Shown here piece after piece: positions 4,023 through 53,459 of a stretch of 64,000 bases of DNA. Position numbers and translations under genes: made by a program. The notes beneath the pieces are model-generated. The model did no database searches and was not told the DNA's origin. It worked only from the letters and a program-made list of their open reading frames with translations. Each line of letters opens with the position of its first letter. Position 1 is the first letter of the stretch. Source of the DNA: an uncultured Chloroflexia bacterium (lineage in GTDB: Bacteria; Chloroflexota; Limnocylindria; Limnocylindrales; CSP1-4); NCBI GenBank assembly GCA_963736545.1, contig CAVTPA010000001.1:1665660-1729659 (forward strand), written 5' to 3'.

Positions 4023-6854
4023 CTACTCGACCTCGAAGATCGCCGCCTCCAGCGCGCCGCCCATGCCGGGGTCCATGCCGTCCATCGGGTCGGCCGCAAG
4101 CGCCGTCCCCTCCGCGGGGACACACGAGAGCGCGTACGCGCCGGGCGTGTCGAGCGCGAAGCGGGCCGACTGCTCCTGGCCCGGGCGCGGGTTCAGCTCG
4201 ACCTTCGGAGCTCCCGGCAGCAGGCAGACGTACAGCGTGGCGGTGTCGTTCGTGAGGGTGACGAGCACCTGTTCGCCGGCCGCCACCCGGTAGGTGGGGG
4301 CGGGATCGCCCAGCGAGGAGGCGGCCACCGGCACCGGCACGGCGTTCGCGTCGAGCCAGCGGTTCACCCCGATGAAGCCCGCCGCGATCGCGACCGCGAT
4401 CCCCGCGATCACCGCGAGGTACGCCGCGTCCTTCACCCGCGTCCACGTCGCGTGGCGCGAGGCCGCCAGGACGGCTGCCGGCCGCGGGTCGTAGCCGCGA
4501 AGGCGGAGGGAGTTCGAGATGACCGACACCGACGAGAGGGCCATCGCCCCGGCGGCGAGCGCCGGGTTGAGCGTGATCCCGAAGGTCGGGTACAGGATCC
4601 CCATCGCGACCGGGATGAGGAGGACGTTGTAGGCGAAGGCCCAGAACAGGTTCTGGCGGATGACGGCCATCGTCCGCCGCGAGAGGGCGATCGCGGCGAC
4701 GACGCCGCGCGGATCGCCGCCGACGAGCGTGATGTCGGAGGCCTCGATGGCGACATCGGCGCCGGTCCCGATCGCCACGCCGAGATCGGCCGCGGCCAGC
4801 GCCGGTGCGTCGTTGATCCCGTCGCCGACCATGGCGACGACCTTGCCGCGGGCCCGCAGCTCCTCGACGACCGCCGCCTTGTCCCCGGGGAGCACCTGGG
4901 CCCGGACGCGCTCGACGGGGATCCCGACCTGGGCGGCGACGGACTCGGCGGTGGCCCGGTGGTCGCCGGTGACGAGCCAGGCTTCGATGCCGGCAGCTGC
5001 CAGCGCCCGCACGGCCTCGGCCGACTCCGCCTTGACGGGATCGGCGATCGCGAGCAGCCCGGCCGGCGCTCCGTCGACGGCGACGAAGACCGGGGTGTGG
5101 CCCTGCGCCGCATGGCCCTCGCCGGCGGCCCCCAGCTCGCCTAGGTCCACCCCGCGCTCGGCGAGGAAGCGGGCGCTGCCGACCAGGACGACACGGCCGT
5201 CGACGGTGGCCTCGGCGCCGCCGCCGGCCGTCGCCTCGAACGCGTCGCCGCCGGGGAACGCGAGGCCGCGGTCGCGTGCCGCCGCCAGGATCGCGCTCGC
5301 CAACGGGTGCTCCGAGCCGGCTTCGACGGCGGCGGCCAGGCGGAGGAGGTCGTCGGGGGCCAGCTCGCCGACGGGGACCACCTCGGCGACGGCCGGCTTG
5401 CCGCGCGTGAGCGTGCCCGTCTTGTCGAGGATCACCGCGGTCACGCGGTGGGCGTTCTCCAGGGCCTCGCCGCCGCGGACGAGGATCCCGGCCTCGGCGC
5501 CGCGCCCGGTGCCGACCATGATCGCGGTCGGCGTCGCGAGGCCCATCGCGCAGGGGCAGGCGATGATGACGACCGTGATGAAGGATGCGAGGGCGAGCGT
5601 GACCTTCGGCTCGGGCCCGAGGACGAACCAGAGCCCGAAGGTGAGCGCCGCGACGACGAGGACGATCGGCACGAAGATCCCGCTGATCCGGTCGGCCAGC
5701 CGCTGGATCGGGGCCTTGCTCCCCTGCGCGCGGCGGACCATCTCGACGATCTGGGCGAGGGCGGTCTCGCTCCCGACGCGGGTCGCCCGCATGACGAAGC
5801 TGCCGGTCGTGTTCAGGGTCGCCCCGATCACCTCGTCGCCCTTCGACTTCGTGACCGGCATCGCCTCGCCGGTGAGCATCGCCTCGTCGAGCGCGCTCGA
5901 GCCCTCGACGAGGACGCCGTCGACCGGCACCTTCTCGCCCGGGCGGACGCGCAGGAGGTCGCCCGGCTGGACCTGGTCGACCGGGATGTCGACGTCGCCG
6001 TCGGCCCGGACGACCCGGGCGGTCTTCGCCTGGAGCCCGACGAGCCGCCGGATCGCGCCGGTCGTGCGGCCCTTCGCCCGGCTTTCGAGCCACTTCCCGA
6101 GGAGGATGAGGCCGATGATGATCGTGGAGGAGTCGAAGTAGGTTTCGGCCGGGAGGCCGGCCCGCATGATCACCCCCGGGTACATCGTCACGAAGACCGA
6201 GTATCCCCAGGCCGCGCTCGTGCCGACGGCGACGAGCGTGCTCATGTTCGTGCCACCGTGGCGGGCCGTCCGCCAGGCCGCCTCGTAGAAGCGGCGCCCG
6301 GCCCAGAACTGGACGAACGTCGCCGGCCAGAGGGCCAGCCGGTTGACGTCGGCCATCGACAGCGGGAAGGGGCCGAACATCAGGACCATGATCCCGACCG
6401 CGACGCCGATGCTGACGGCCGACTGGATCCCGAGCTCGCGCTGCTCGCGGGCGCGCAGCCGCTCGGTCTCGTCGAGCTCCGAGTCGACGGCGGCGGTCCC
6501 GGTTGCGGCGGCCGCCGCTCGGCTGCCGCCGGCCGCCTGCGCCTCCGCCGCCTCGAGCGCGCCCGGGCGCACCTCGTAGCCCGCCTTCTCGATCGCCCCG
6601 ACGAGCTCGGCCCGCCCGACGGCGTCCGGCAGGAAGCGGATCGTGGCGACCTCGGTGGCGAGATTGACGTTCGCCTCGACGACGCCGTCCGTCTTGCGCA
6701 GGAATCGCTCGATCCGGTTGCTGCACGAGGCACACGTCATCCCGACGACCGGGAACGAGACCTCGGCCGGCTGCGCGGGGGACGCCGTGGCCGGGGCCGG
6801 CTCGACAGGCGGGCCCGGCTGGGCGAGTGGGGTGGTGGGGACGCTCGAGCTCAT
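4023..6854 (-). CDS. copA: copper-translocating P1B-type ATPase with an extra C-terminal TM helix and beta-sandwich (cupredoxin_1-like) domain
   Basis: N-terminal [18 protein letters not shown] motif ([13 protein letters not shown]), [15 protein letters not shown]. The last ~150 aa (nt 4023-4478) extend beyond the normal end of CopA. Confidence 0.9.
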
Positions 6855-7965: not shown

Positions 7966-8558
7966 CGATCCTGCGGGCCTACCGGCAGCTGCTCGGCAAC
8001 GGGCCGCTGACCCGTCTCCTCGTCGGCGAGTTCGTCTCGTCGATCGGCGACTGGCTCTACCTCGTGGCGATCCTCATCCTGGTCTACCAGGTCACCGAGG
8101 ACCCCTTCGTGCTCGGGCTCGTCGGTGCTGCCCGCGTCCTCCCCTACCTCTTCCTGTCGATCCCGGCCGGCATCGTCGCGGACCGGTTCGACCGCCGCCT
8201 CGTCCTCCTCTCGACCGACGTCGCCCGCGGGATCCTCATGCTCGTCATTGCCGCGGTGGTCTTCGTCGACGGGCCGATCTGGATCGTGATCGCGCTGGCG
8301 ATCGGCGGGACCTGCTTCGCCACGTTCTTCGGGCCGGCGATCGGCGCCTATCTGCCGACGCTCGTCGCCGACGAGGAGCAGCTGGGGCCGGCCAACAGCG
8401 CCTGGTCGACGCTCGACAACCTCGCCTTCATGATCGGGCCGGCGGTGGCCGGCATCCTCATCGCCACCGGCGGGCTCGTCATTGCCTTCCTCCTCAACGC
8501 GGCGAGCTTCGCCGTCATCGCGGTCGTCCTCTGGGGGCTTCCTCGCAGCCGGCCGGCC

Positions 8559-8593
8559 GACGCGCGACGGCGGCAGACGCGCCGACGGCGGCC
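8559..8593 (+). repeat. 17 + 18 nt tandem duplication (GACGCG-CGACGGCGGCA / GACGCGCCGACGGCGGCC); the missing C causes the first frame change
   Basis: Read directly. Restoring one C gives an in-frame DAPTAA-DAPTAA-PSDAPTT loop. Confidence 0.8.
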
Positions 8594-9499
8594 CCGAGCG
8601 ACGCGCCGACGACGAACCCGACCCACGAGCCCGCAACGGCGATCGAGCCACCGACGCCGGCGGGGGCGCGGGCAGGTATCCCCACGGCCGTGCTCCTGCC
8701 GGTCGTCGGGCTCGGGATCGTCGACGTCGTGGGGGCGATGGCCGGCGGCGGCCTCTCGGTCCTCACCGTCGTCATCGCGACGACCGAGCTCGGCGGTGGC
8801 GAGGAGGCAACCGGCTTCCTCAACGCCGGGATCGGGCTCGGCGGCTTCATCGGGGCGATCATCGCCGGGGCGCTCGTGCTGCGGCCCAGCCTCGTCCCGG
8901 TGCTCGTCGCCGGGTCGGTGGTCTACGGGGCCGGGCTCGCCGCGCTGGGCTACGCGCCGGCGCTCGGGATCGCGTTCCTGGCGATCGCCGTGGCGGCGGC
9001 GGGGAGCCTGCTCGTCGAGGTGACGAGCACGACGGTCTTCCAACGCGCCGTACCGGACGTGATCCGCGGCCGCGCGATCGGCATCCTCGGGACGATCTCG
9101 ATGGCCGCCTTCGCCGGCGGGTCGTTCCTCCTCCCGGTCGCGAGCGGCTATGTCGGCGTCGGTCCGGTGCTGCTGGCGACCGGGATCGCGATCGCCGCCG
9201 CCGGCGTCGTCGGGGCGATGCTGGCGGCCCCGGCGGCGCGTCGGAGCACGGGCTCGACGGCCGACGTCCGCGTCACGCGCCTCGCAGGCCTGCCGCTCTT
9301 CGCCGGCGTCCCGGCCGCCACGCTGGAGGCGATCGCGGTGAAGCTGGCACCGGTGGCGGTCGCGGCGGGCGCGGTCGTGATCCGCCAGGGCGAACCGGCC
9401 GACCGCTTCTACATCATCGAGGAGGGCCGGTTCGAGGTGACGCAGGTGCCCGAAGCGGGAGCGGAGGCGGCACCCGGCGCCGGCACGGCCGCGGCGGCC

Positions 9500-19811: not shown

Positions 19812-20021
19812 CTCGACCTCCTCCGGCGCAACGGCGCCGGTGCAACAGGTCGCGGGTCGGTCTCGCCAGTGGCTCGACGCGGTCCCGGCGGCCGGGTTCG
19901 GGCCGCGCATCATCGCCTCCCGTATGGCGCGAACCCTAGGCGCGCCCGAGCCGTGTGGCGAGAGTCGAACGGCCCCCAGCGCCGCCACCGGGGCCGAGGC
20001 CCATGGACGAGTCGTCCCGCC

Positions 20022-39529: not shown

Positions 39530-40534
39530 GTGACCCGTCCCGACGCCGGGGAGCCGCTCGTCGGCCTCGACGCGATCCTCGCCGCGGCGGCGCGCCTTCG
39601 GGGCGTGGCCGCCCGGACGCCGCTCGTCGCGCTCGGCGACCCCGCGCGCGGCCACCTCCTCAAGGCCGAGTCGCTCCAGCCGATCGGCGCCTTCAAGATC
39701 CGGGGCGCGTACAACGCCGCGGCCCAGCTCGCGCCGGCAGAGCGGGCCCGCGGACTCATCACGTACTCCTCGGGGAACCACGCCCAGGGTGTCGCCCGCG
39801 CGGCTCGCCTCCTCGGCGTGCCCGCGGTCATCGTCATGCCGGAGAACGCCCCAGCGATCAAGCGCGCCCGCGTCCTCGCCGACGGCGCCGAGGTCGTCAC
39901 CGTCGGCAACGCCAGCGCCGAGCGCCAGGCGGTCGCGGAGCGGCTCGCCGCCGAGCGCGGCCTCGCGATGATCCCGCCGTACGACGACGACCGGATCATC
40001 GCCGGCCAGGGAACGTGCGGCCTCGAGATCGCCGAGGACCTGCCCGACCTCGCGGCGGTCCTGGTCCCGATCGGCGGCGGCGGGCTTGCCTCGGGCGTGG
40101 GCGCGGCCGTGAAGGCGCTCCGCCCGGCGGCGCGGGTCGTCGGCGTGGAACCGGAGCTGGCGGCCGACGCGCGGGAGTCGCTGGCCAGGGGCGAGATCGT
40201 CGAATGGTCCGCGGCCGACGTCTCGCGGACGATCGCCGACGGCACGCGGACGCAGGCCCTCGGGGTCCGGACGTTCGCCCACCTGCGGGCGCTCCTCGAC
40301 GACATCGTCACCGTGTCGGAAGAGGAGATCGCGGCGGCCGTCCGGATCGCGGCCGAGGAGGCGCGCCTCGTCGTCGAGCCGTCCGGCGCCCTGTCGATCG
40401 CCGCCCTCCGCTTCCGGGCGGCGGCAGCGGGCGTGGAGAGCGTGGACGGCCCGGTCGTCTGCGTCGTCTCCGGCGGCAACGTCGACCCGGTGCGCTACCT
40501 CGCCTACCTCGAGGCGCCCATCCCCTCGGCCTGA
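39530..40534 (+). CDS. PLP-dependent threonine/serine dehydratase
   Basis: PLP-lysine motif SLQPIGAFKIRGA and the GGGGL glycine loop. No regulatory ACT-like C-terminus. Confidence 0.85.
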   Translation: MTRPDAGEPLVGLDAILAAAARLRGVAARTPLVALGDPARGHLLKAESLQPIGAFKIRGAYNAAAQLAPAERARGLITYSSGNHAQGVARAARLLGVPAVIVMPENAPAIKRARVLADGAEVVTVGNASAERQAVAERLAAERGLAMIPPYDDDRIIAGQGTCGLEIAEDLPDLAAVLVPIGGGGLASGVGAAVKALRPAARVVGVEPELAADARESLARGEIVEWSAADVSRTIADGTRTQALGVRTFAHLRALLDDIVTVSEEEIAAAVRIAAEEARLVVEPSGALSIAALRFRAAAAGVESVDGPVVCVVSGGNVDPVRYLAYLEAPIPSA

Positions 40535-41616
40535 CCGTCGGCCGTCGACAGGGCCGGAGCAGGCGGGTCGTCGGCGTGCGCCTGGCGGGCCGCGCGCGCA
40601 TCCTCGGCTGCCTCGCGCCGTCGCGTTGACGCCTCCTCGGCCCGCATCCAGGCGGCGATCACGATGAAGATGGCCACGATGAACACCAGGTCGCCGATGC
40701 CCCACATGAGGGCGCCCGCGAGCTGCTGGTCCTCGAGCGGCGTCGGCGGCCAGGCGCGTCCGGTGGTCACGTAGTGCGGGTAGAGCACCGTGCCGGAGAA
40801 GAGGATGAGGACGCCGAGCAGCGACATGAGCGGCATCTGGAGGAACAGGTAGCCGATCCGCGCCGGATACGGCAGCCGCCAGGGGCTCGGGTCGCGCCCG
40901 ACGACCGGCCACCAGAAGAGCATCGAGGACGCGAGGTACAGCCCGTGCTCGAGATCGTGGACGAGGGCGTCCTCGAGCGCGGCGTCGAAGAGCGACGACA
41001 GGTGGCTGCCCCAGGTCACCGCCGTGAACAGGAGCCAGGCCACCAGCGGGTGGGCGACGACCTTCACGACCCGCGAGCGCAGCACCGGGAGGATCCAGCG
41101 GTTGCGGACGTCGGGCGTCGCGACACGCAGGAGCAGGGTGATCGGGGCGGCGAGGACGAGCGCCGGACCCGCCCCGAACACGATGAGGGTGTGCTGGACC
41201 ATGTGGACCGAGAACAGCTCCGTATCGTAGCGCTCGATCCCGGAGAGCAGGGCGACCGCGAGGCAGGCGAGACCGATGAGCCAGAAGACCGGGCGGTCGC
41301 GTGGCACGGGATTGGCGGGGTGGGCGGCGTCGACCCGGTGGACGGCCCACAGGTACGCCACCGCGGCGACGACGAGCCCGAGGACGACCTGGGGGTGGAA
41401 CGACCAGCCCAGGACGAAGATCGCGAGGTCGGGCGGTGGCGGCACCTCGCCGCCGTGGGCGAGGGCCGGGCCGGCCGCGGCGAGGGCGACGACCCCGAGC
41501 GCGGGCACCAGCGCGAGGACGCGGGTCGCGCGCGCGAAGCCGCTCGCCGCGGAGCGGCGCGGGGCGCGGCCGGGGGCCTGGCGCGGGGCGCGGCCGGGGG
41601 CTCGCAGGCGGATCAC
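40504..41616 (-). CDS. ctaG: cytochrome c oxidase assembly factor CtaG (caa3-type membrane family)
   Basis: Polytopic membrane protein with SVHMVQH and WWP motifs. Start is GTG 41616 or ATG 41700. Its 3' end overlaps the convergent dehydratase gene by 31 nt. Confidence 0.75.
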   Translation of the reverse strand: MIRLRAPGRAPRQAPGRAPRRSAASGFARATRVLALVPALGVVALAAAGPALAHGGEVPPPPDLAIFVLGWSFHPQVVLGLVVAAVAYLWAVHRVDAAHPANPVPRDRPVFWLIGLACLAVALLSGIERYDTELFSVHMVQHTLIVFGAGPALVLAAPITLLLRVATPDVRNRWILPVLRSRVVKVVAHPLVAWLLFTAVTWGSHLSSLFDAALEDALVHDLEHGLYLASSMLFWWPVVGRDPSPWRLPYPARIGYLFLQMPLMSLLGVLILFSGTVLYPHYVTTGRAWPPTPLEDQQLAGALMWGIGDLVFIVAIFIVIAAWMRAEEASTRRREAAEDARAARQAHADDPPAPALSTADGQAEGMGASR

Positions 41617-41829: not shown

Positions 41830-43017
41830 ATGACGTTCACCCCGAAGGGTCCCCGCCGCCGCACGGCGATCGTGCTGCTGCTGGCGGCCGTGGCACTCGT
41901 CGTGTCCGCGTGCTCGGACTTCGACATCCGCACGGGGCTCCCGCCGGACGCCGCGACGACGCAGGGCCAGGCGGTCCGCGACCTGTACGACATCGTCTTC
42001 CTCATCGGGGCCGCGGTCTTCATCTTCGTCGAGGGCCTGATCCTCTTCGCCGTCATCCGCTACCGCCGGCGCAAGGGCGACGACGAGCTGCCGCCGCAGA
42101 TCCACGGCAACAACAAGCTCGAGATCATCTGGACGGCGATCCCGATCGCGATCGTCCTCGCCCTCTTCGTCATCTCCTGGAACACTCTCAACGTCATCGA
42201 CGCGGTGAAGCCGAACCCGCCGGTCCGCATCGGGGTCGTCGCCTACCAGTGGCAGTGGCAGTTCGTGTACGCACCCGAGGGGATCGCGTGGGAGGACTGC
42301 GGCGCCCCCGAGAACGCCGGCACGTGCGTCACCGTCATCGGCGTCGGCCCGCCGAACGGCGACCGGACGAACTGGACGCCGCCGCAGATGCACGTGCCCG
42401 TCAACGAGACCGTCGAGCTCCAGATGCACGCGGTGGACGTGATCCACTCGTTCTACGTCCCGGCGTTCCTGTACCAGCGCGACATCACCCCGCGGAAGGA
42501 CCAGGTGATCCAGTTCTTCGCCGACCGCGAGGGGACGTACCGCGGCCAGTGCACCCAGTTCTGCGGCCTCAAGCACCACGAGATGGAGTTCGAGGTCGTC
42601 GTCGAGAGCCGCGAGGACTTCAACGCCTGGCTCGCCGAGGAGCTCACGCCGCCGGCCACGCCGTCGCCCGCGCCGACCACGAGCGCGGCGCCCGGGGGAG
42701 CGCGGCGCCGGGAGAGCGCGGCGCCCGGGGAGGCGGTGACGCTCGAGATCAGCGCCCAGGGCATCGCCTTCGACACCGACACGCTCGAGGTGCCGGCGAA
42801 CACGCCGTTCACGATCGTCTTCGCCAACAACGACGCGGGGATCCCCCACAACGTCGCCATCCACGAGGGGGGCCCGACCGGGCCCGAGGTCTGGGCCGGC
42901 GAGATCTTCAACGGCGTGGAGACCCGGACGTACGAGGTCCCGGCCCTGCCCGCCGGCACGTACGGCTTCATCTGCACGGTCCACCCGAACATGACCGGCA
43001 CGCTCACGGCCCGGTAG
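41830..43017 (+). CDS. ctaC: cytochrome c oxidase subunit II fused to a C-terminal amicyanin/plastocyanin-like cupredoxin domain
   Basis: Lipobox VVSAC, two TM helices, CuA site H...CTQFCGLKHHEM. A linker leads to a 95-aa domain with PHNVAIH and CTVHPNM (C-x2-H-x2-M). GGGAGG Shine-Dalgarno. Confidence 0.9.
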   Translation: MTFTPKGPRRRTAIVLLLAAVALVVSACSDFDIRTGLPPDAATTQGQAVRDLYDIVFLIGAAVFIFVEGLILFAVIRYRRRKGDDELPPQIHGNNKLEIIWTAIPIAIVLALFVISWNTLNVIDAVKPNPPVRIGVVAYQWQWQFVYAPEGIAWEDCGAPENAGTCVTVIGVGPPNGDRTNWTPPQMHVPVNETVELQMHAVDVIHSFYVPAFLYQRDITPRKDQVIQFFADREGTYRGQCTQFCGLKHHEMEFEVVVESREDFNAWLAEELTPPATPSPAPTTSAAPGGARRRESAAPGEAVTLEISAQGIAFDTDTLEVPANTPFTIVFANNDAGIPHNVAIHEGGPTGPEVWAGEIFNGVETRTYEVPALPAGTYGFICTVHPNMTGTLTAR

Positions 43018-43020
43018 GAG
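42714..43020 (+). repeat. copy 1 of a 307-bp segment 100 % identical to 46411-46717 (cupredoxin module plus stop plus 3 nt)
   Basis: Compared base by base by eye; no mismatch seen. Confidence 0.9.
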
Positions 43021-43026
43021 AGGACG

Positions 43027-44664
43027 ATGGCTACCACCGCGCTCCGGCCCACCGCGACGTACCGCTCGGGCATCTACGACTGGCTGACGACCACCGATCA
43101 CAAGAAGATCGGGATCCTCTACACGTTCAACTCGCTGCTGCTCTTCCTCGTCGGCGGCACGCTCGCCCTCGCCGTCCGCACCGAGCTGGCCATGCCGGGC
43201 CTCCAGGTGATGGACGAGACGACGTACAACCAGATGTTCACGATGCACGCCTCGGTGATGATCTTCTGGGTCGTCATCCCGTTCCTGGCGGGCTTCGGCA
43301 ACTACCTGGTCCCGCTCATGATCGGGGCGCCGGACATGGCGTTCCCCCGGATCAACGCCCTCTCGTTCTGGCTCCTGCCGCTCTCCGCGATGATCGCGAT
43401 GCTGGGCTTCCCGCTCGGCGGCGCGGCGCAGGAGGGCTGGACCTCCTACAGCCCGCTCGCGCAGGACCAGTACGCCGCGGGCGTGGGCACCGACCTCTGG
43501 ATCATCGCCCTGCTCCTCGTGGGAACGAGCTCGATCCTCGGGGCGGTCAACTTCCTCGTCACGATCTTCAAGATGCGGGCGCCCGGGATGACCCTCTTCC
43601 GGATGCCGATCTTCGTCTGGACGATCCTCGTGACGAGCGTCCTCGTCCTCATGGGAACGCCGGTCCTGACCTCCGCCCTCGTGATGCTGTACATCGACCG
43701 CAACTTCGGCGGCGCCTTCTTCAACACGGCGCTCGAGGGCGGCAACGCGATCCTGTGGCAGAACGTGTTCTGGTTCTACAGCCACCCGGCCGTCTACATC
43801 ATGATCCTGCCGGCGATGGGGATCATCTCGGAGGTCCTCCCGACCTTCAGCCGGAAGCCGCTCTTCGGCTACAAGGCGTTCGTCTTCGCCACGGCCGCGA
43901 TCGGGGCCCTCGGCTTCTCGGTGTGGGCCCACCACATGTTCACGACCGGCGCCGTGTACCTCCCGTTCTTCAGCTTCATGACGTTCCTCATCGCCGTCCC
44001 GACCGGCGTGAAGATGTTCAACTGGATCGCCACGATGTTCCGGGGGAAGCTGTCGTTCACGACCTCGATGCTGTTCGCGGTCGGGTTCCTGGCGATGTTC
44101 CTCATCGGCGGCATCAACGGTGCCTTCCTGGCGTCCGTCCCGGTGGACTACCACGTTCACGCGACGTACTGGATCGTGGCCCACATCCACTACGTCCTCT
44201 TCGGCGGCTCGATCATCGGCATCTTCGCCGGGCTCTACTACTGGTGGCCGAAGATGTTCGGGCGCCGGCTCAACGAGAGCCTCGGCAAGATCCACTTCGT
44301 CCTCATCTTCATCGGCATGAACCTGACGTTCTTCCCGATGCACCTCCTGGGGACGTCAGGGATGACCCGCCGGATCGCCGACTACAGCGCGACCGCCGGC
44401 TGGAACGACCTGAACCTGTGGGCGACGATCGGCGGCTTCACGATCGCGGTGGGGATGCTGCCGTTCCTGTGGAACATCTTCATCACCCTCCGCCACGGCG
44501 AGCCGGCCGGCGACGACCCGTGGGAGGGCAGCACGCTGGAGTGGGCGACCTCCTCGCCGCCGCCCGCCTGGAACTTCGACCACCTGCCGCCGATCCGCTC
44601 CGAGCGGCCGGTCTTCGACCGCCGCCGGGCGTCCGAGGCAGCCCAGCTTCCCGCGGGGCACTGA
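43027..44664 (+). CDS. ctaD: cytochrome c oxidase subunit I
   Basis: Canonical heme-copper oxidase subunit I sequence (WFYSHPAVYIMILP, HHMF, etc.). Confidence 0.95.
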   Translation: MATTALRPTATYRSGIYDWLTTTDHKKIGILYTFNSLLLFLVGGTLALAVRTELAMPGLQVMDETTYNQMFTMHASVMIFWVVIPFLAGFGNYLVPLMIGAPDMAFPRINALSFWLLPLSAMIAMLGFPLGGAAQEGWTSYSPLAQDQYAAGVGTDLWIIALLLVGTSSILGAVNFLVTIFKMRAPGMTLFRMPIFVWTILVTSVLVLMGTPVLTSALVMLYIDRNFGGAFFNTALEGGNAILWQNVFWFYSHPAVYIMILPAMGIISEVLPTFSRKPLFGYKAFVFATAAIGALGFSVWAHHMFTTGAVYLPFFSFMTFLIAVPTGVKMFNWIATMFRGKLSFTTSMLFAVGFLAMFLIGGINGAFLASVPVDYHVHATYWIVAHIHYVLFGGSIIGIFAGLYYWWPKMFGRRLNESLGKIHFVLIFIGMNLTFFPMHLLGTSGMTRRIADYSATAGWNDLNLWATIGGFTIAVGMLPFLWNIFITLRHGEPAGDDPWEGSTLEWATSSPPPAWNFDHLPPIRSERPVFDRRRASEAAQLPAGH

Positions 44665-44667
44665 CCG

Positions 44668-45300
44668 ATGACCGCCAGCCCGTCCACCGTCACGCCGCAC
44701 GCCGGGGCTCCCGGGGCGCACGTCCAGCACCGGAGCGGGATCAGCAACCCGATCCTGGGGATGATCCTCTTCATCGCCTCGGAGGTGATGTTCTTCGCCG
44801 GCCTCTTCGCGGCCTACTACAACGTCCGGCTGACCGCGCCGCACTGGCCGCCCCTCGTCAACGAGGCCGAGTACGAACCCTTCCTCATCGGCAACGAGAT
44901 CCTCCTGCCGGGGATCCTCACGTTCATTCTCGTCATGAGCTCGGTGACGATGCAGCTGGCCGTGTGGGCGATCCGCCGCGGCGATCGGACGGCGTTCCTG
45001 CGGAACACGGCCGTCACCCTCGTCCTGGGGGTGATCTTCCTCGCCGGGCAGCTCTACGACTACCTGCACCTCGGCTTCGGGATCACCGACACCGCGTTCG
45101 GCAGCACGTTCTACACGCTGACCGGCTTCCACGGCGCCCACGTCCTCGGCGGCGCGGTCATGCTGGGGGTGATCCTCTACCGGGGGCTGGCCGGCCAGTT
45201 CTCGGCCCGTCACCACGACGCGGTGGAGGCGACGTCGCTCTACTGGCACTTCGTCGACGTCGTCTGGATCGTCCTCTTCTCCACGCTCTATCTGCTGTAG
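44668..45300 (+). CDS. ctaE: cytochrome c oxidase subunit III
   Basis: 210 aa, 5 TM, with FHGAHV and YWHFVD motifs. Confidence 0.9.
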   Translation: MTASPSTVTPHAGAPGAHVQHRSGISNPILGMILFIASEVMFFAGLFAAYYNVRLTAPHWPPLVNEAEYEPFLIGNEILLPGILTFILVMSSVTMQLAVWAIRRGDRTAFLRNTAVTLVLGVIFLAGQLYDYLHLGFGITDTAFGSTFYTLTGFHGAHVLGGAVMLGVILYRGLAGQFSARHHDAVEATSLYWHFVDVVWIVLFSTLYLL

Positions 45301-45315
45301 CGTTCGGAGGGACCG

Positions 45316-45495
45316 ATGATCATCAAGCCGCGCTACACGCTCCTGGCGGCCGTCCTGTTCATCACCGTCGCCATCGTCTACGGCGTCCTCAGCCGCGACT
45401 GGGCGGGGGTGACGATGCTGTTCGCGCTCGGGATCGCGACGTCCCTCATGGCCTACGTCCTCGTCGTGGGATCGCCCCGCGGCGACGAGCAGTAG
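45316..45495 (+). CDS. 59-aa two-TM protein resembling the N-terminal half of actinobacterial oxidase subunit IV (CtaF-like); absent from the ORF track
   Basis: GGAGGG Shine-Dalgarno 4 nt upstream of ATG 45316. Reads MIIKPRYTLLAAVLFITVAIVYGVLSRDWAGVTMLFALGIATSLMAYVLVVGSPRGDEQ*. Similarity to CtaF is from memory. Confidence 0.55.
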   Translation: MIIKPRYTLLAAVLFITVAIVYGVLSRDWAGVTMLFALGIATSLMAYVLVVGSPRGDEQ

Positions 45496-45517
45496 CCCCG
45501 GCGGCGACGGGCCACCG

Positions 45518-46714
45518 ATGACGCCCTGGGAGACGTTCCTCGAGGCCGTCGGCTCCCTCGTTGCCCCCGACTGGGGCGCACTCATCCTGCTCATCCCGCT
45601 CGGCGTCCTGCTCGCGGTCGCGGCCTATCTCGTCTGGGTCGTGCGGCGATTTGCGACGGCCGGGCCCCAGGTCACCCGCCCGCTCCCGGTCGCCCCGCCG
45701 CCCGCGGGCGTCCACCTGCCGGGACCGAGCCTGGCCCCGTTCCTCGTCGCCGGCGGCGCCCTCGCCCTCTTCGCCTCGCTCCTCTTCGTCCGGATCGGGC
45801 CGGCGGCGGACCCGACCACGGGTGAGCCGATCCCCGGCAGCACGACGATCGCGATCGAGGCGCTCGGGATCGTCGCCATCGTCCTGGGGGTCGGGGCACT
45901 CGTGGGGGCGCTCCTCTACTGGGGCCGCGAGGCGATGCGCGACTACGACGCGCTCGAGGCGCCCACCGCGCTCGTGGCGGCGGGGCACGCCGGGCCGCCG
46001 GCCGGCGTCCACGTCCCCGGGCCGTCGTTCCGCCCGCTGCTCGCCGCGATCGCGTCCGGGGCCATGCTCCTCGGCCTCGTCATCGACCCGATCGTCTTCC
46101 TTGCCGGCCTGCTCATGACCGTGATCGGGCTCCTCGGCTGGCTCAACGACGCCCGCAAGGAGTACCGCGAGGTCGTCAAGGCGGACGCCACGGGACACCT
46201 TGAGAACATCCCGGCGCCGCGCTTCCCGACCGGGACGCTCGTGGCGTTCGCCGTCATCTTCGTGGGCTCACTGCTCATCGCCGGCGGCATCTTCCCGCCC
46301 CGCGAGGGCACGACCGGCGGGGGCGGCGGCGCACCTCCGCCCGCCACCCAGGCCCCCGGCGGCGGAGGCGGCGCCACCGCGGCACCGGCGCCGAGCGACG
46401 CGCCGACCACGAGCGCGGCGCCCGGGGAGGCGGTGACGCTCGAGATCAGCGCCCAGGGCATCGCCTTCGACACCGACACGCTCGAGGTGCCGGCGAACAC
46501 GCCGTTCACGATCGTCTTCGCCAACAACGACGCGGGGATCCCCCACAACGTCGCCATCCACGAGGGGGGCCCGACCGGGCCCGAGGTCTGGGCCGGCGAG
46601 ATCTTCAACGGCGTGGAGACCCGGACGTACGAGGTCCCGGCCCTGCCCGCCGGCACGTACGGCTTCATCTGCACGGTCCACCCGAACATGACCGGCACGC
46701 TCACGGCCCGGTAG
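45518..46714 (+). CDS. membrane protein with two CtaF-C-like [GVH(L/V)PGPS..P + TM] repeats and the same C-terminal cupredoxin module as CoxII
   Basis: PPAGVHLPGPSLAPF... and PPAGVHVPGPSFRPL... each precede a TM helix. A Gly/Pro linker leads to a 95-aa domain identical to the CoxII C-terminus. Confidence 0.7.
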   Translation: MTPWETFLEAVGSLVAPDWGALILLIPLGVLLAVAAYLVWVVRRFATAGPQVTRPLPVAPPPAGVHLPGPSLAPFLVAGGALALFASLLFVRIGPAADPTTGEPIPGSTTIAIEALGIVAIVLGVGALVGALLYWGREAMRDYDALEAPTALVAAGHAGPPAGVHVPGPSFRPLLAAIASGAMLLGLVIDPIVFLAGLLMTVIGLLGWLNDARKEYREVVKADATGHLENIPAPRFPTGTLVAFAVIFVGSLLIAGGIFPPREGTTGGGGGAPPPATQAPGGGGGATAAPAPSDAPTTSAAPGEAVTLEISAQGIAFDTDTLEVPANTPFTIVFANNDAGIPHNVAIHEGGPTGPEVWAGEIFNGVETRTYEVPALPAGTYGFICTVHPNMTGTLTAR

Positions 46715-46717
46715 GAG
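46411..46717 (+). repeat. copy 2 of the 307-bp identical segment
   Basis: See 42714-43020. Confidence 0.9.
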
Positions 46718-46768: not shown

Positions 46769-47326
46769 ATGAGTCGCCCGGCCCGCCGCCGCCCATCCGA
46801 CCTGCTCGTCGCCGCCATCGTCCTCGCGCTTGCCGCCGCCGTGGCCGCGTGCAGCGGCGGTTCGGCGGGGACCCCTGCCGGCAGCGTCGTCACGATCGGC
46901 TCGCCGCTCATCGGCCAGCCCGCACCGCAGCTCGTCGGCGAGACGCTCGACGGTTCGACGTTCGACCTCGCCGCCGAGCGCGGGAAGCCGGTCCTCGTCA
47001 ACTTCTGGGCGAGCTGGTGCGGGCCCTGCCGCGAGGAGTTCCCGCTGCTCGAGGATGCCGCCGCCCGCCACGCCGACGAGGGCCTCGTCGTCGTCGGCGC
47101 CCTCTTCAAGGACGACGCCGACCCGGCCCGGACGTTCGTGGAAGAGCAGGGAGCGACGTGGCCGACCGTCGCCGACCCCGACCGCGTCGTCGGCCCGGCG
47201 TGGAAGGTCCTCGCCCCGCCCCAGTCGTTCTTCGTCGATCGCGAGGGGATCATCCGCGAGGTGCAGGTCGGCCAGGTCCGCGACGCCGCGGAGCTCGACC
47301 GGCTGCTCGCGTCCATCCTCGAGTGA
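46769..47326 (+). CDS. TlpA/ResA-type thiol:disulfide oxidoreductase lipoprotein
   Basis: Lipobox AAVAAC-S and thioredoxin motif WASWCGPC. Confidence 0.85.
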   Translation: MSRPARRRPSDLLVAAIVLALAAAVAACSGGSAGTPAGSVVTIGSPLIGQPAPQLVGETLDGSTFDLAAERGKPVLVNFWASWCGPCREEFPLLEDAAARHADEGLVVVGALFKDDADPARTFVEEQGATWPTVADPDRVVGPAWKVLAPPQSFFVDREGIIREVQVGQVRDAAELDRLLASILE

Positions 47327-53384: not shown

Positions 53385-53459
53385 TGGTTGCGGGGAAGGG
53401 ATTCGAACCCTTGACCTTTGGGTTATGAGCCCAACGAGCTGCCGCTGCTCCACCCCGCA
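53385..53459 (-). tRNA. initiator tRNA-Met (CAT anticodon, encoded CCA)
   Basis: Cloverleaf folded by hand: acceptor TGCGGGG/CCCCGCA, D stem GAGC/GCTC (A11:U24), anticodon stem TTGGG/CCCAA with three G:C pairs next to the loop CTCATAA, T arm AAGGG-TTCGAAT-CCCTT, ACCA end. Confidence 0.9.

Follow-up and report, generated by a model that had tools for sequence, protein, structure and literature searches.

Concerted evolution of a cupredoxin module carried by two proteins of an aa3 oxidase operon in Chloroflexota

Non-reciprocal conversion of the RecA type keeps dispersed duplicates such as tufA/tufB and the rrn operons near-identical. In those cases the homogenised units are whole genes of identical function. 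Here, we describe paralogs that are likewise near-identical within genomes, in which the unit is a domain of ~300 nt lying within different genes. A related case is found in the mtr operons of methanogens, where mtrA-1 and mtrA-2 evolve in concert (Wang et al. 2015, PMC4632066). There, as in the locus considered here, two paralogs of one operon contribute to a membrane energy-converting complex and differ in their membrane parts, their shared soluble domain appears to have long been homogenised by gene conversion, and the paralogs group by genome. The present locus differs in that CoxII and the CtaF-like protein, which host the module, are encoded by non-homologous genes, in that relatives have up to four carriers, some of them ~40 kb off or on other contigs, in that the module is a predicted copper electron carrier, and in the existence of a sister clade without homogenisation.

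Several respiratory systems offer a functional comparison. In caa3 oxidases (e.g., those of Thermus and Bacillus), CoxII bears a C-terminal cytochrome c domain. Our locus resembles these in that the CuA subunit ends in a tethered putative donor domain and a caa3-type CtaG adjoins the operon; however, CoxII here lacks CxxCH and carries a tethered type-1 copper cupredoxin on a linker of ~35 aa, and a second, identical module resides on another subunit. In the Sulfolobus SoxM supercomplex, which contains the sulfocyanin SoxE, and in the actinobacterial bcc-aa3 supercomplex, which contains CtaF, a built-in blue copper protein or dihaem cytochrome c links the Rieske/b complex to the CuA oxidase in place of soluble cytochrome c. 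A built-in carrier and an extra small membrane subunit (CtaF) would be features in common; in our case, the match to the CtaF model falls below threshold. Auracyanins of Chloroflexus and Roseiflexus have a presumed role between quinol oxidoreductase and terminal acceptor. They give the best structural matches to the module, come from the same phylum and share its presumed role, but they are free-standing, lipid- or helix-anchored proteins of ~140 aa with 23–30% identity to the module, whose ligand loop (C-x2-H-x2-M) is of the short amicyanin type. Finally, AcoP of Acidithiobacillus ferrooxidans is, like the modules described here, a membrane-anchored cupredoxin encoded in an oxidase gene cluster (PMC4059628, PMC10804444). 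Unlike them, it is a single-helix protein of an unrelated cupredoxin subfamily, has an atypical green copper site, and is neither duplicated nor fused to CoxII.

The oxidase operon and its repeated segment

The window analysed here is a 64-kb stretch of the genome of an uncultured member of the Chloroflexota (Limnocylindria-type; 74% G+C, GC3 ~100%). It contains an operon for an A-type haem-copper (aa3) oxidase, in which CoxI, CoxII with its CuA ligands (H...CTQFCGLKHHEM) and CoxIII are encoded together. The features of interest are as follows.

40504..41598, minus strand: CtaG, caa3-type oxidase assembly factor (PF09678 Caa3_CtaG, 252.9 bits; start codon approximate)
41830..43017, plus strand: coxII (ctaC) (PF02790, PF00116 and PF13473, the last at 62.7 bits; TIGR02866 CoxB)
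42681..42730, plus strand: tandem repeat in the CoxII linker, three units of 16–17 nt, GAGCGCGGCGCC(C)GGG(G/A)
42714..43020, plus strand: identical segment, copy A (linker end, cupredoxin module, TAG, then GAG)
43027..44664, plus strand: coxI (ctaD), haem-copper oxidase subunit I (PF00115, 544 bits)
44668..45300, plus strand: coxIII (ctaE), short form (PF00510, 146.9 bits)
45316..45495, plus strand: conserved two-helix open reading frame of 59 aa (PF12270, E 4.4e-4, 20.8 bits, below cut-off)
45518..46714, plus strand: second module carrier, a membrane protein (PF12270, 26.0 bits; PF13473, 43.6 bits)
46411..46717, plus strand: identical segment, copy B (last 3 nt, GAG, past the stop)
46769..47326, plus strand: TlpA/ResA/DsbE-like membrane-anchored thiol-disulfide oxidoreductase (PF00578, PF08534)

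CoxII (395 aa; 168 bits against TIGR02866, cut-off 147.7) has a lipoprotein-type signal (VSAC), two TM helices and a CuA domain (DVIHSF...CTQFCGLKHHEM), followed by a Pro/Ala/Ser-rich linker of ~35 aa and a C-terminal type-1-copper cupredoxin module. CxxCH is absent from its 395 residues, which also give no cytochrome c Pfam match. This oxidase is thus not a member of the caa3 type, a cupredoxin taking the place of the haem c domain. CoxIII matches only positions 78–255 of the 258 in PF00510, so that the first two helices found in the long form are missing. The adjacent 59-aa frame weakly resembles the CtaF N-terminus, and a gene of 59–60 aa is called at its place in three related contigs (L047, L048, L049). 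Divergent from the operon is the CtaG gene, called at the same position in L047 and L048. The TlpA/ResA/DsbE-like protein reaches 91 bits against TIGR00385 (dsbE), below the cut-off, and may be a helper in CuA or cytochrome maturation.

The second carrier (398 aa) has six hydrophobic segments by hydropathy and two internal PAGxH(L/V)PGPSxxP repeats, then a disordered linker of ~40 aa and the same cupredoxin module. In its AF2 model, linker residues 262–302 have pLDDT<50 and the module has pLDDT 90–96. Its score against PF12270 (CtaF, actinobacterial oxidase subunit IV) lies just under the gathering cut-off of 26.9, and the family comprises 1339 homologs at E<=1e-3, many with a precomputed PF12270 match. 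Profile searches also touch the N-terminal helices of CoxIII (1m56_C, E 0.0017; 2yev_A, E 0.016), and the best 50 Foldseek matches include none to the membrane part.

The module itself exceeds the cut-off of PF13473 (27 bits) in both proteins and that of PF00127 (27.1 and 26.6 bits for the two copies; cut-off 21.2). A profile search of the PDB finds amicyanin (3c75, E 5.5e-10), while the TIGR02657 amicyanin equivalog is not reached (30 bits versus 110), so the module is not amicyanin proper. The predicted fold is a Greek-key beta-sandwich of eight strands (residues 307–397). Foldseek matches this model to auracyanin, amicyanin and plastocyanin with probability 1.00; in the PDB, auracyanin A/B and amicyanin match best (E 3e-8 to 1e-6), the auracyanin entries being 2aan (2.9e-8), 6kol (4.3e-8) and 1qhq (1.2e-7). 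Across 45 homologs, 20 module columns are invariant, and so are the copper ligands H343 (PHNV), C385, H388 and M391 (CTVHPNM). The module is therefore classed, from sequence and model, as a type-1-copper (amicyanin/auracyanin-like) cupredoxin with a full predicted ligand set.

Base-by-base extension bears out the preliminary description of a 307-nt identity that includes the stop codon and three further bases: positions 42714–43020 and 46411–46717 agree without a difference, no base matches to the left, and nt 308 is mismatched on the right. The segment consists of 100 codons followed by the TAG stop and a further 3 nt (GAG). It lies in frame within each open reading frame (41830–43017 and 45518–46714), and both encode PHNVAIH...CTVHPNM. 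The start-to-start distance is 3697 nt. Also correct was the earlier account that CoxII and a second protein of the oxidase operon bear one and the same cupredoxin module and that the flanks are unrelated. Chance was considered as a source of the match and excluded; the surrounding 7.5 kb has no comparable repeat, the only others being of up to ~50 nt at 60–85% identity.

Three details of that description need adjustment. One is the spacing, given there as 3.4 kb. Homology also extends further to the left than the exact 307-nt unit: if 33 nt in the CoxII copy are treated as inserted, each unit has the 12 nt CGCGCCGACCAC ahead of it. Also, the local triplication reported upstream of the CoxII copy is present but spans 42681–42730 rather than 42698–42730. 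Its units of 17, 16 and 17 nt start at 42681, 42698 and 42714; the middle one is read out of frame (ARRRE), and the third is the start of the 307-nt segment. Relative to the second-protein copy, the CoxII linker has a net gain of 33 nt (11 codons), and the 12-mer GAGCGCGGCGCC occurs 4 times against 0.53 expected.

Module copies across related genomes

The window's clade comprises 14 genomes with 33 module copies, which were compared over a gap-free core of 267 nt. Copies within a genome have a median DNA identity of 98.5% (27 pairs, nine at 100%), whereas copies from different genomes have a median of 85.4%, whether the host gene is the same or different. For 28 of the 33 copies, the nearest neighbour lies within the same genome. 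Between CoxII copies from different genomes, the median number of differing codons is 15 synonymous and 17 nonsynonymous out of 89; the window's two copies differ at none of either kind. The GC3 of ~100% limits the synonymous change that is possible, and between-genome synonymous differences are still many. Wherever a related operon is complete at both positions, it contains both fusions, which are therefore old.

Among the explanations offered in the preliminary description, these comparative data select ongoing gene conversion. We propose, with a probability of about 0.88, that paralogous cupredoxin modules, anciently fused to two oxidase subunits, evolve in concert through recurrent gene conversion. 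Each module copy is joined by a flexible linker to the C-terminus of a different aa3 subunit, either CoxII or a membrane subunit resembling CtaF and the CoxIII N-terminus. Homologous recombination would repeatedly copy a tract of ~200–350 nt over another copy, non-reciprocally, and the copies would therefore be near-identical in each genome even though the module differs from genome to genome. With 0 differences in 307 nt, the window would represent the state directly after such an event.

Tract structure in the relatives is informative here. In eight other species and in metagenome contig L047, the copies are at least 98% identical within each, and module sequence and tract ends vary by species. 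The tracts measure 278–354 nt at 98–100% identity, and L047 has a mismatch-free run of ~286 nt. In contig L048, a 213-nt identical core lies inside a diverged domain, its 17 differences being confined to the two ends (permutation P<5e-5). Non-coding bases have been copied along: the coxI ribosome-binding-site spacer contributes 3–8 nt to five second-carrier (IV) copies; in CAVRZZ, the second-carrier (IV) copy shares 15 nt, of which 12 lie beyond the stop, with the flank 3′ of the lipoprotein copy, and these include the next gene's start codon; and three CAVXLA copies have 12 nt past the stop in common. Altogether, the co-copied bases extend 3–12 nt beyond the stop codon (3–15 nt with the stop counted). 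In the window, the GAG after the stop of copy A opens the coxI ribosome-binding site GGAGAGGA, while that of copy B matches the CoxII-coxI junction and not any local ribosome-binding site; the donor in the window's conversion event was therefore probably the CoxII copy. Directly seen in the data are concerted evolution as a pattern, tracts that vary in extent or form mosaics, non-coding bases copied together with the module, and a copper-ligand set that is intact.

A single recent tandem or segmental duplication, in which the second protein newly gained its module and no process is ongoing, would also produce 0 differences in 307 nt and an identity that ends at the linker and just past the stop, like a fresh insertion. 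This explanation, which had been put forward earlier as a very recent duplication, is highly improbable: every relative with a complete gene has the module on the second protein, including distant, diverged ones; both fusions occur in all complete related operons, those of the diverged sister clade among them; and the second-carrier family has >1300 members. In addition, near-identical copies occur in nine other genomes, which differ from one another in module sequence and in tract ends, and L048 shows a mosaic tract. Where an existing module is overwritten by a paralog copy, the process is by definition gene conversion.

It is very unlikely, too, that diverged copies were homogenised by consensus during assembly or polishing, or that the contig is chimeric or collapsed, as had been considered earlier. 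The window does come from a metagenome-derived contig; its sister contig L049 is noisy (89 indels in 21 kb, fragmented genes); and the two assemblies differ exactly at the CoxII linker repeat, where L049 is 13 nt shorter. Yet L049, an independent ENA contig of 97.5% identity, has the same 307-nt tract, and gene order and reading frames in the window are intact and collinear with >30 related operons. GTDB species representatives and a JGI assembly show the same pattern, with 0–5 scattered differences; homogenisation by polishing would not yield these together with the variable ends and the one mosaic. Moreover, a 307-nt repeat 3.7 kb apart is short against long reads.

It is also highly improbable that extreme purifying or convergent selection on protein and codon usage, with no copying of DNA, produced the identity. 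The GC3 of ~100% and a constrained module, with its 20 invariant columns, would favour such an effect, but orthologs from different genomes differ at many codons (the medians given above), the identity reaches the linker and non-coding 3′ bases, including a neighbour's start codon moved to another locus, and sister-clade modules, equally functional, are only 53–75% identical.

That sister clade provides a reference for recurrent gene conversion in the window's clade. Its two modules have only 53–75% protein identity, the closest sequence is the ortholog for 31 of 32 copies, and the two are ordinary diverged paralogs by sequence, the pattern expected in the absence of conversion. The preliminary description had envisaged, as a refutation, relatives whose modules have plainly diverged and bear no conversion tracts; such relatives occur in the distant clade only and not in that of the window. 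In two relatives, L002 and L006, the CoxII copy has escaped homogenisation, so selection for identity is not universal and neutral conversion is sufficient.

Possible role of the tethered modules

The same module is found beyond the oxidase operon. In relatives, it ends a monohaem cytochrome c whose gene directly follows those for cytochrome b and the Rieske protein, and it also ends a lipoprotein. Homogenisation with the oxidase copies extends to both of these. Relatives have up to four module carriers, some at loci ~40 kb distant and oppositely oriented, others on separate contigs. The 64-kb window contains neither the complex III copy nor the lipoprotein copy, and neither was recovered for its genome.

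From domain identity, ligands, topology prediction and gene context, we infer that the modules may lie on the membrane's outer face as tethered electron carriers feeding CuA, much as the cytochrome c domain does in caa3 oxidases. Their homogenised counterparts on complex III and on a lipoprotein in relatives suggest a possible relay of tethered cupredoxins leading from complex III to CuA. If docking partners are shared, homogenisation may therefore be tolerated or even favoured. It is also possible that conversion is real and the modules are not carriers, acting instead in copper delivery, CuA assembly or oxidase stabilisation, as proposed for AcoP. The neighbouring genes encode the assembly factors CtaG and a TlpA/ResA-like oxidoreductase, PF13473 includes members with no redox role, and AcoP, membrane-anchored and oxidase-bound in A. 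ferrooxidans, maintains oxidase activity (PMC4059628). We consider this unlikely, since the His-Cys-His-Met type-1 ligand set is complete and invariant, the closest structural matches (auracyanin, amicyanin and plastocyanin) are electron carriers, and the same module is fused to the cytochrome c subunit of complex III, on the natural electron donor side.

Homogenisation of respiratory modules by gene conversion is a mechanistically familiar type of genome evolution. More tentatively, identical modules on the complex III cytochrome c subunit, a lipoprotein shuttle, CoxII and the CtaF-like subunit might form a relay, a possibility that we still hold to be doubtful. If true, self-exchange of electrons between identical cupredoxins would replace soluble cytochrome c, and gene conversion would co-evolve four docking surfaces and their redox potentials as one unit. 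Homogenisation of a domain across non-homologous genes would then be selected, not merely tolerated.

The oxidase operon and its repeated segment

The region is an aa3-type oxidase operon comprising the following genes.

Genes of the oxidase operon (window coordinates)
about 40504-41598, divergent: CtaG (PF09678, 253 bits)
41830-43017: CoxII (TIGR02866 above cut-off; CuA motif CTQFCGLKHHEM)
43027-44664: CoxI
44668-45300: CoxIII, short form
45316-45495, + strand: conserved 59-aa ORF with two helices, between coxIII and the second-carrier gene
45518-46714: second module carrier, 398 aa
46769-47326: TlpA/ResA-like thiol-disulfide oxidoreductase

CoxII lacks a CxxCH motif, and the oxidase is therefore not of the caa3 type, yet the layout is analogous to that of caa3 oxidases, as a donor domain is tethered to the CuA subunit. 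The 59-aa ORF resembles the N-terminal part of CtaF below threshold (PF12270, E 4.4e-4), and the gene is also called in metagenome loci L047 and L048 and in sister contig L049. Elsewhere in the window, Rfam matches comprise only a c-di-GMP-II-GAG riboswitch aptamer at 19846-19929 on the minus strand (RF03169, 70.7 bits; gathering score 40) and a tRNA. The latter, a tRNA-Met (CAT) at 53385-53459 on the minus strand, is the sole tRNA in the 64 kb.

The ends of the CoxII and second-carrier genes are the same. Positions 42714-43020 and 46411-46717 share exactly 307 identical nucleotides, bounded by a differing base directly to the left and a mismatch at position 308. Thus a repeat finder and base-by-base extension bear out the preliminary description, which reported identity through the stop codon and 3 nt beyond. 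Each copy is read in frame as the 3′ end of a long ORF (41830-43017 and 45518-46714, respectively) and encodes ...SAAPGEAVTLEISAQGIAFDTD...PHNVAIH...CTVHPNMTGTLTAR, followed by TAG and then GAG. To the left of the segment, 12 more nucleotides are common to both (CGCGCCGACCAC) once a 33-nt insertion is allowed in the first copy. This insertion is part of three tandem units of 16–17 nt starting at 42681, 42698 and 42714, such that the CoxII linker carries two extra units (+33 nt, GGARRRESAAP) immediately where the identical tract begins on its 5′ side. The triplication described earlier at 42698-42730 is thus present, but those coordinates take in only two of its three units. L049 is 13 nt shorter than the window exactly at this repeat. 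The repeat could reflect true slippage of a G+C-rich sequence, a scar that the latest conversion left at the junction, or noise in the consensus. Near the 307-nt segment, the repeat finder detected no second repeat approaching it in length or identity. Other short repeats (D2-D20, I1-I25) were dismissed as low-identity matches, typical for a coding region of 74% G+C, which is the G+C content of the window.

The module and its second carrier

The module passes Pfam cupredoxin models, and its His/Cys/His/Met type-1 copper ligands are invariant among 45 homologs. By sequence alone its best matches are plastocyanin, auracyanin and amicyanin; by fold, the best PDB matches are auracyanin A/B and amicyanin. 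Auracyanins, the blue-copper carriers of Chloroflexota, are thus its best structural match.

The second carrier has six hydrophobic segments and two internal repeats, in each of which a helix follows the invariant motif PAGxH(L/V)PGPSxxP; the histidines H66 and H165 of these repeats are invariant in the same number of homologs (45). The repeat-bearing part spans residues 1-274 (window 45518-46340). Profile matches are weak: the protein scores 26.0 bits against the actinobacterial subunit IV model PF12270, below the cut-off of 26.9, and it matches the N-terminal helices of long CoxIII proteins (1m56_C, E 0.0017; 2yev_A, E 0.016). The operon's own CoxIII is a short form without the first helices of long CoxIII. 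The second carrier may stand in for these absent helices, with two sets of them. AlphaFold models the C-terminal module confidently (pLDDT 90-96), preceded by a disordered stretch at residues 262-302 (pLDDT<50). The top 50 Foldseek matches to the whole 398-aa model are to cupredoxins, with none for the membrane part, which can be called CtaF-like only tentatively. Homologs of the second carrier number 1339 at E<=1e-3, from MAGs of Chloroflexota / Candidatus Limnocylindrales, and are named at most "plastocyanin" or "cupredoxin domain-containing protein".

Recurrent homogenisation of the module among relatives

To the 46 loci obtained by a scan of one genome per GTDB species we added L047 and L048, found via the two closest second-carrier proteins (86% and 80% identity), and L049 (97.5% identical), found via a 100%-identical second-carrier protein. 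L049 (ENA ERZ25039503 contig_62784, 191,963 nt) is an independent, noisier assembly, with 298 mismatches and 89 indels in 21 kb against window 35583-56696, and probably represents a close strain in a consensus of low accuracy. Frameshifts break up its coxII and coxI; its second-carrier protein is 100% identical despite the noise. In all related operons with both positions complete, tblastn detects one cupredoxin module following the CoxII CuA domain and another ending the second carrier. A very recent duplication creating the second fusion, one of the origins offered in the preliminary description, is therefore excluded. The second-carrier module of L010 (8901-9180), split over two frames by a frameshift near 9040, is either a pseudogene or the product of an indel in the assembly; the identity statistics do not include it. 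Multi-cupredoxin proteins also lie beside oxidases in a phylum other than Chloroflexota: L043 (Actinomycetes MAG CAWGFO) encodes three tandem cupredoxin domains, 44–52% identical to the module, at 8001-8921, about 1.6 kb downstream of the cox operon, and L045 encodes two such domains.

Across 14 genomes of the window's clade, we compared 33 copies of the module over a gap-free core of 267 nt. DNA identity has a median of 98.5% within genomes versus 85.4% between genomes, the latter regardless of whether the copies belong to the same host gene (174 pairs) or to different ones (323 pairs), and for 28 of the 33 copies the closest other copy lies in the same genome. CoxII and second-carrier copies are 100% identical in the window, L049, L047, L005 and L007, and 99.6% identical in L001, L003, L004 and L008. 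Values are lower in L009 (95.5%), L048 (93.6%), L002 (87.6%) and L006 (80.9%). Comparing CoxII copies between genomes gives medians of 15 synonymous and 17 nonsynonymous codon differences out of 89, versus none of either kind for the window's own pair. The pattern is reversed in a distant clade of 16 genomes, where 31 of 32 copies are closest to the same-host-gene ortholog in another genome and own-genome paralogs are 53–75% identical in protein. Hence, near-identity is a property neither of the fold nor of the assemblies. Relatives with clearly diverged modules and no conversion tracts, which the preliminary description named as evidence against its reading, do occur, but in this distant clade and not in the window's own. 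One distant-clade genome, L019, is alone there in having modules (5075-5344 and 8775-9038) with common lineage-specific features (DTxGTPHDVDIFD, KVITAPA, KFQCSVHPTMTG). Over 201 nt these modules are 82.6% DNA-identical, and they may record a separate conversion event of greater age. GC-biased conversion was also considered, but GC3 in the module (100%) is too near that in the rest of the operon (95–99%) for a usable contrast.

The identical or near-identical tract varies from 278 to 354 nt between genomes. Its 5′ end lies mostly in the low-complexity linker and its 3′ end a few bases past the stop codon. In L047, the mismatch-free tract is about 286 nt, with ends that differ from the window's. 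In L048, all 17 differences lie within 45 nt of the domain's start or 12 nt of its end, leaving a 213-nt identical core, a run length reached in none of 20,000 random placements of 17 differences. Non-coding bases were copied as well. The CoxII-coxI junction, TAGGAGAG..., contains the coxI ribosome-binding site and is found in 12 of 13 genomes examined (L007 has TAAGAGAG). Between 3 and 8 nt of it also follow the second-carrier copies of the window, L047, L001, L004 and L009, where no gene starts. In CAVRZZ, a relative MAG, the second-carrier copy is followed by TAGCCCGGATGGTGC, the flank of a lipoprotein locus, including the ATG of the next gene; and TAGGCAGGGCGTCCC is common to three copies in another MAG, CAVXLA. 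Variable, mosaic tracts together with co-copied non-coding bases imply DNA copying with a definable donor. For the window, the CoxII copy is the probable donor, a call based on 3 nt and supported by the longer cases elsewhere.

Four MAGs carry the module at additional loci. In L036 and L039 it ends a monoheme cytochrome c (CARCH) whose gene comes right behind those for cytochrome b and the Rieske protein, a cluster that is complex III, and it is also found on a lipoprotein of 165–190 aa (L033, L034, L035, L038). These copies are homogenised too. The cytochrome c and CoxII copies are 100% identical in the MAG CAVQLA; the second-carrier and lipoprotein copies of CAVRZZ are 100% identical in DNA, and its cytochrome c copy (P0242) is identical to both in protein sequence. 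In CAVXLA, the second-carrier, lipoprotein and cytochrome c copies are 95.5–97% identical pairwise. About 40–50 kb separate the complex III locus from the oxidase operon, to which it runs in the opposite direction; the lipoprotein gene is on a separate contig. Right behind the homogenised lipoprotein comes a second lipoprotein cupredoxin of 151 aa (L033 8363-8818; L034 about 8396-8806). This protein, 44–47% identical to the module and first lipoprotein, is free of homogenisation, which makes it a control inside the same locus; it may be a carrier that serves another partner. In the Rieske/cytochrome b cluster, the next gene after that for cytochrome c-cupredoxin encodes a 490-aa Kelch-repeat beta-propeller protein with hydrophobic segments at its ends (L036 8367-9839; L039 8380-9843; 75% identity between the two species). 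Its ribosome-binding site and start in L036 (TAGGGAGGCACGATGGCG) resemble the CoxII-coxI junction; the L039 junction differs.

A search with the cytochrome c-cupredoxin protein gave 2881 proteins at E<=1e-30, which may include matches to the cupredoxin part only; among the best 120, nearly all are full-length. Neither protein search yielded an additional 100%-identical module. Exact 48-nt window-specific and degenerate coding patterns gave 0 matches in JGI metagenome contigs. When the window was searched by tblastn with the genes that relatives have for cytochrome b, the Rieske protein, cytochrome c-cupredoxin and the lipoprotein, the two module copies already known were the sole matches. Gene order in L008/L036 and L006/L039 predicts the complex III locus of the window's genome about 20–25 kb past the window's 3′ end.

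Mechanism, function and significance

The ~300-nt module thus undergoes recurrent, non-reciprocal homogenisation among two to four loci, and we regard concerted evolution by gene conversion as very likely (probability roughly 0.9). We infer that the conversion is of the RecA type, because the module is far longer than the minimal pairing length. Identity is not obligatory, as the CoxII copy has escaped homogenisation in L002 and L006.

With regard to function, the modules would lie on the outer face of the membrane, given that the CoxII C-terminus follows the periplasmic CuA domain and that, in the second carrier, the helices are even in number, the cytoplasmic loops basic and the tail acidic. 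There they would act as tethered electron carriers from complex III cytochrome c to CuA, and common docking partners would render homogenisation harmless or advantageous. We favor this carrier role, albeit with less assurance than the conversion itself. The functional layout is similar to that of auracyanins and of SoxM-type and actinobacterial supercomplexes, which have built-in carriers. It is similar, too, to that of AcoP, a membrane cupredoxin bound to aa3 oxidase (PMC4059628), and by analogy with AcoP the main functional rival is that the module may instead be a chaperone or stabiliser. The closest evolutionary precedent for homogenisation of the cupredoxin module is mtrA-1/mtrA-2 of methanogen mtr operons, in which long-lasting conversion has homogenised the soluble domain of proteins with different membrane parts (PMC4632066). 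The literature searched contained nothing on Limnocylindria oxidases, a cupredoxin-CoxII fusion, or cupredoxin gene conversion.

Finally, these operons offer a clean natural example of domain-level concerted evolution, in which a module in up to four non-homologous respiratory genes is identical within a genome while diverging between species, and the distant sister clade provides a built-in negative control. The system should be useful for studying the tract length, direction and limits of bacterial gene conversion. It is also relevant to domain phylogenies and to assembly-error calling in metagenome-assembled genomes, because such repeats resemble artefacts yet are real. For bioenergetics, the data point to a respiratory layout undescribed in the literature searched, in an abundant, uncultured lineage of soil and freshwater Chloroflexota: complex III and complex IV would share one type of tethered blue-copper carrier, as a copper-based analogue of caa3 oxidases and built-in cytochrome c relays.
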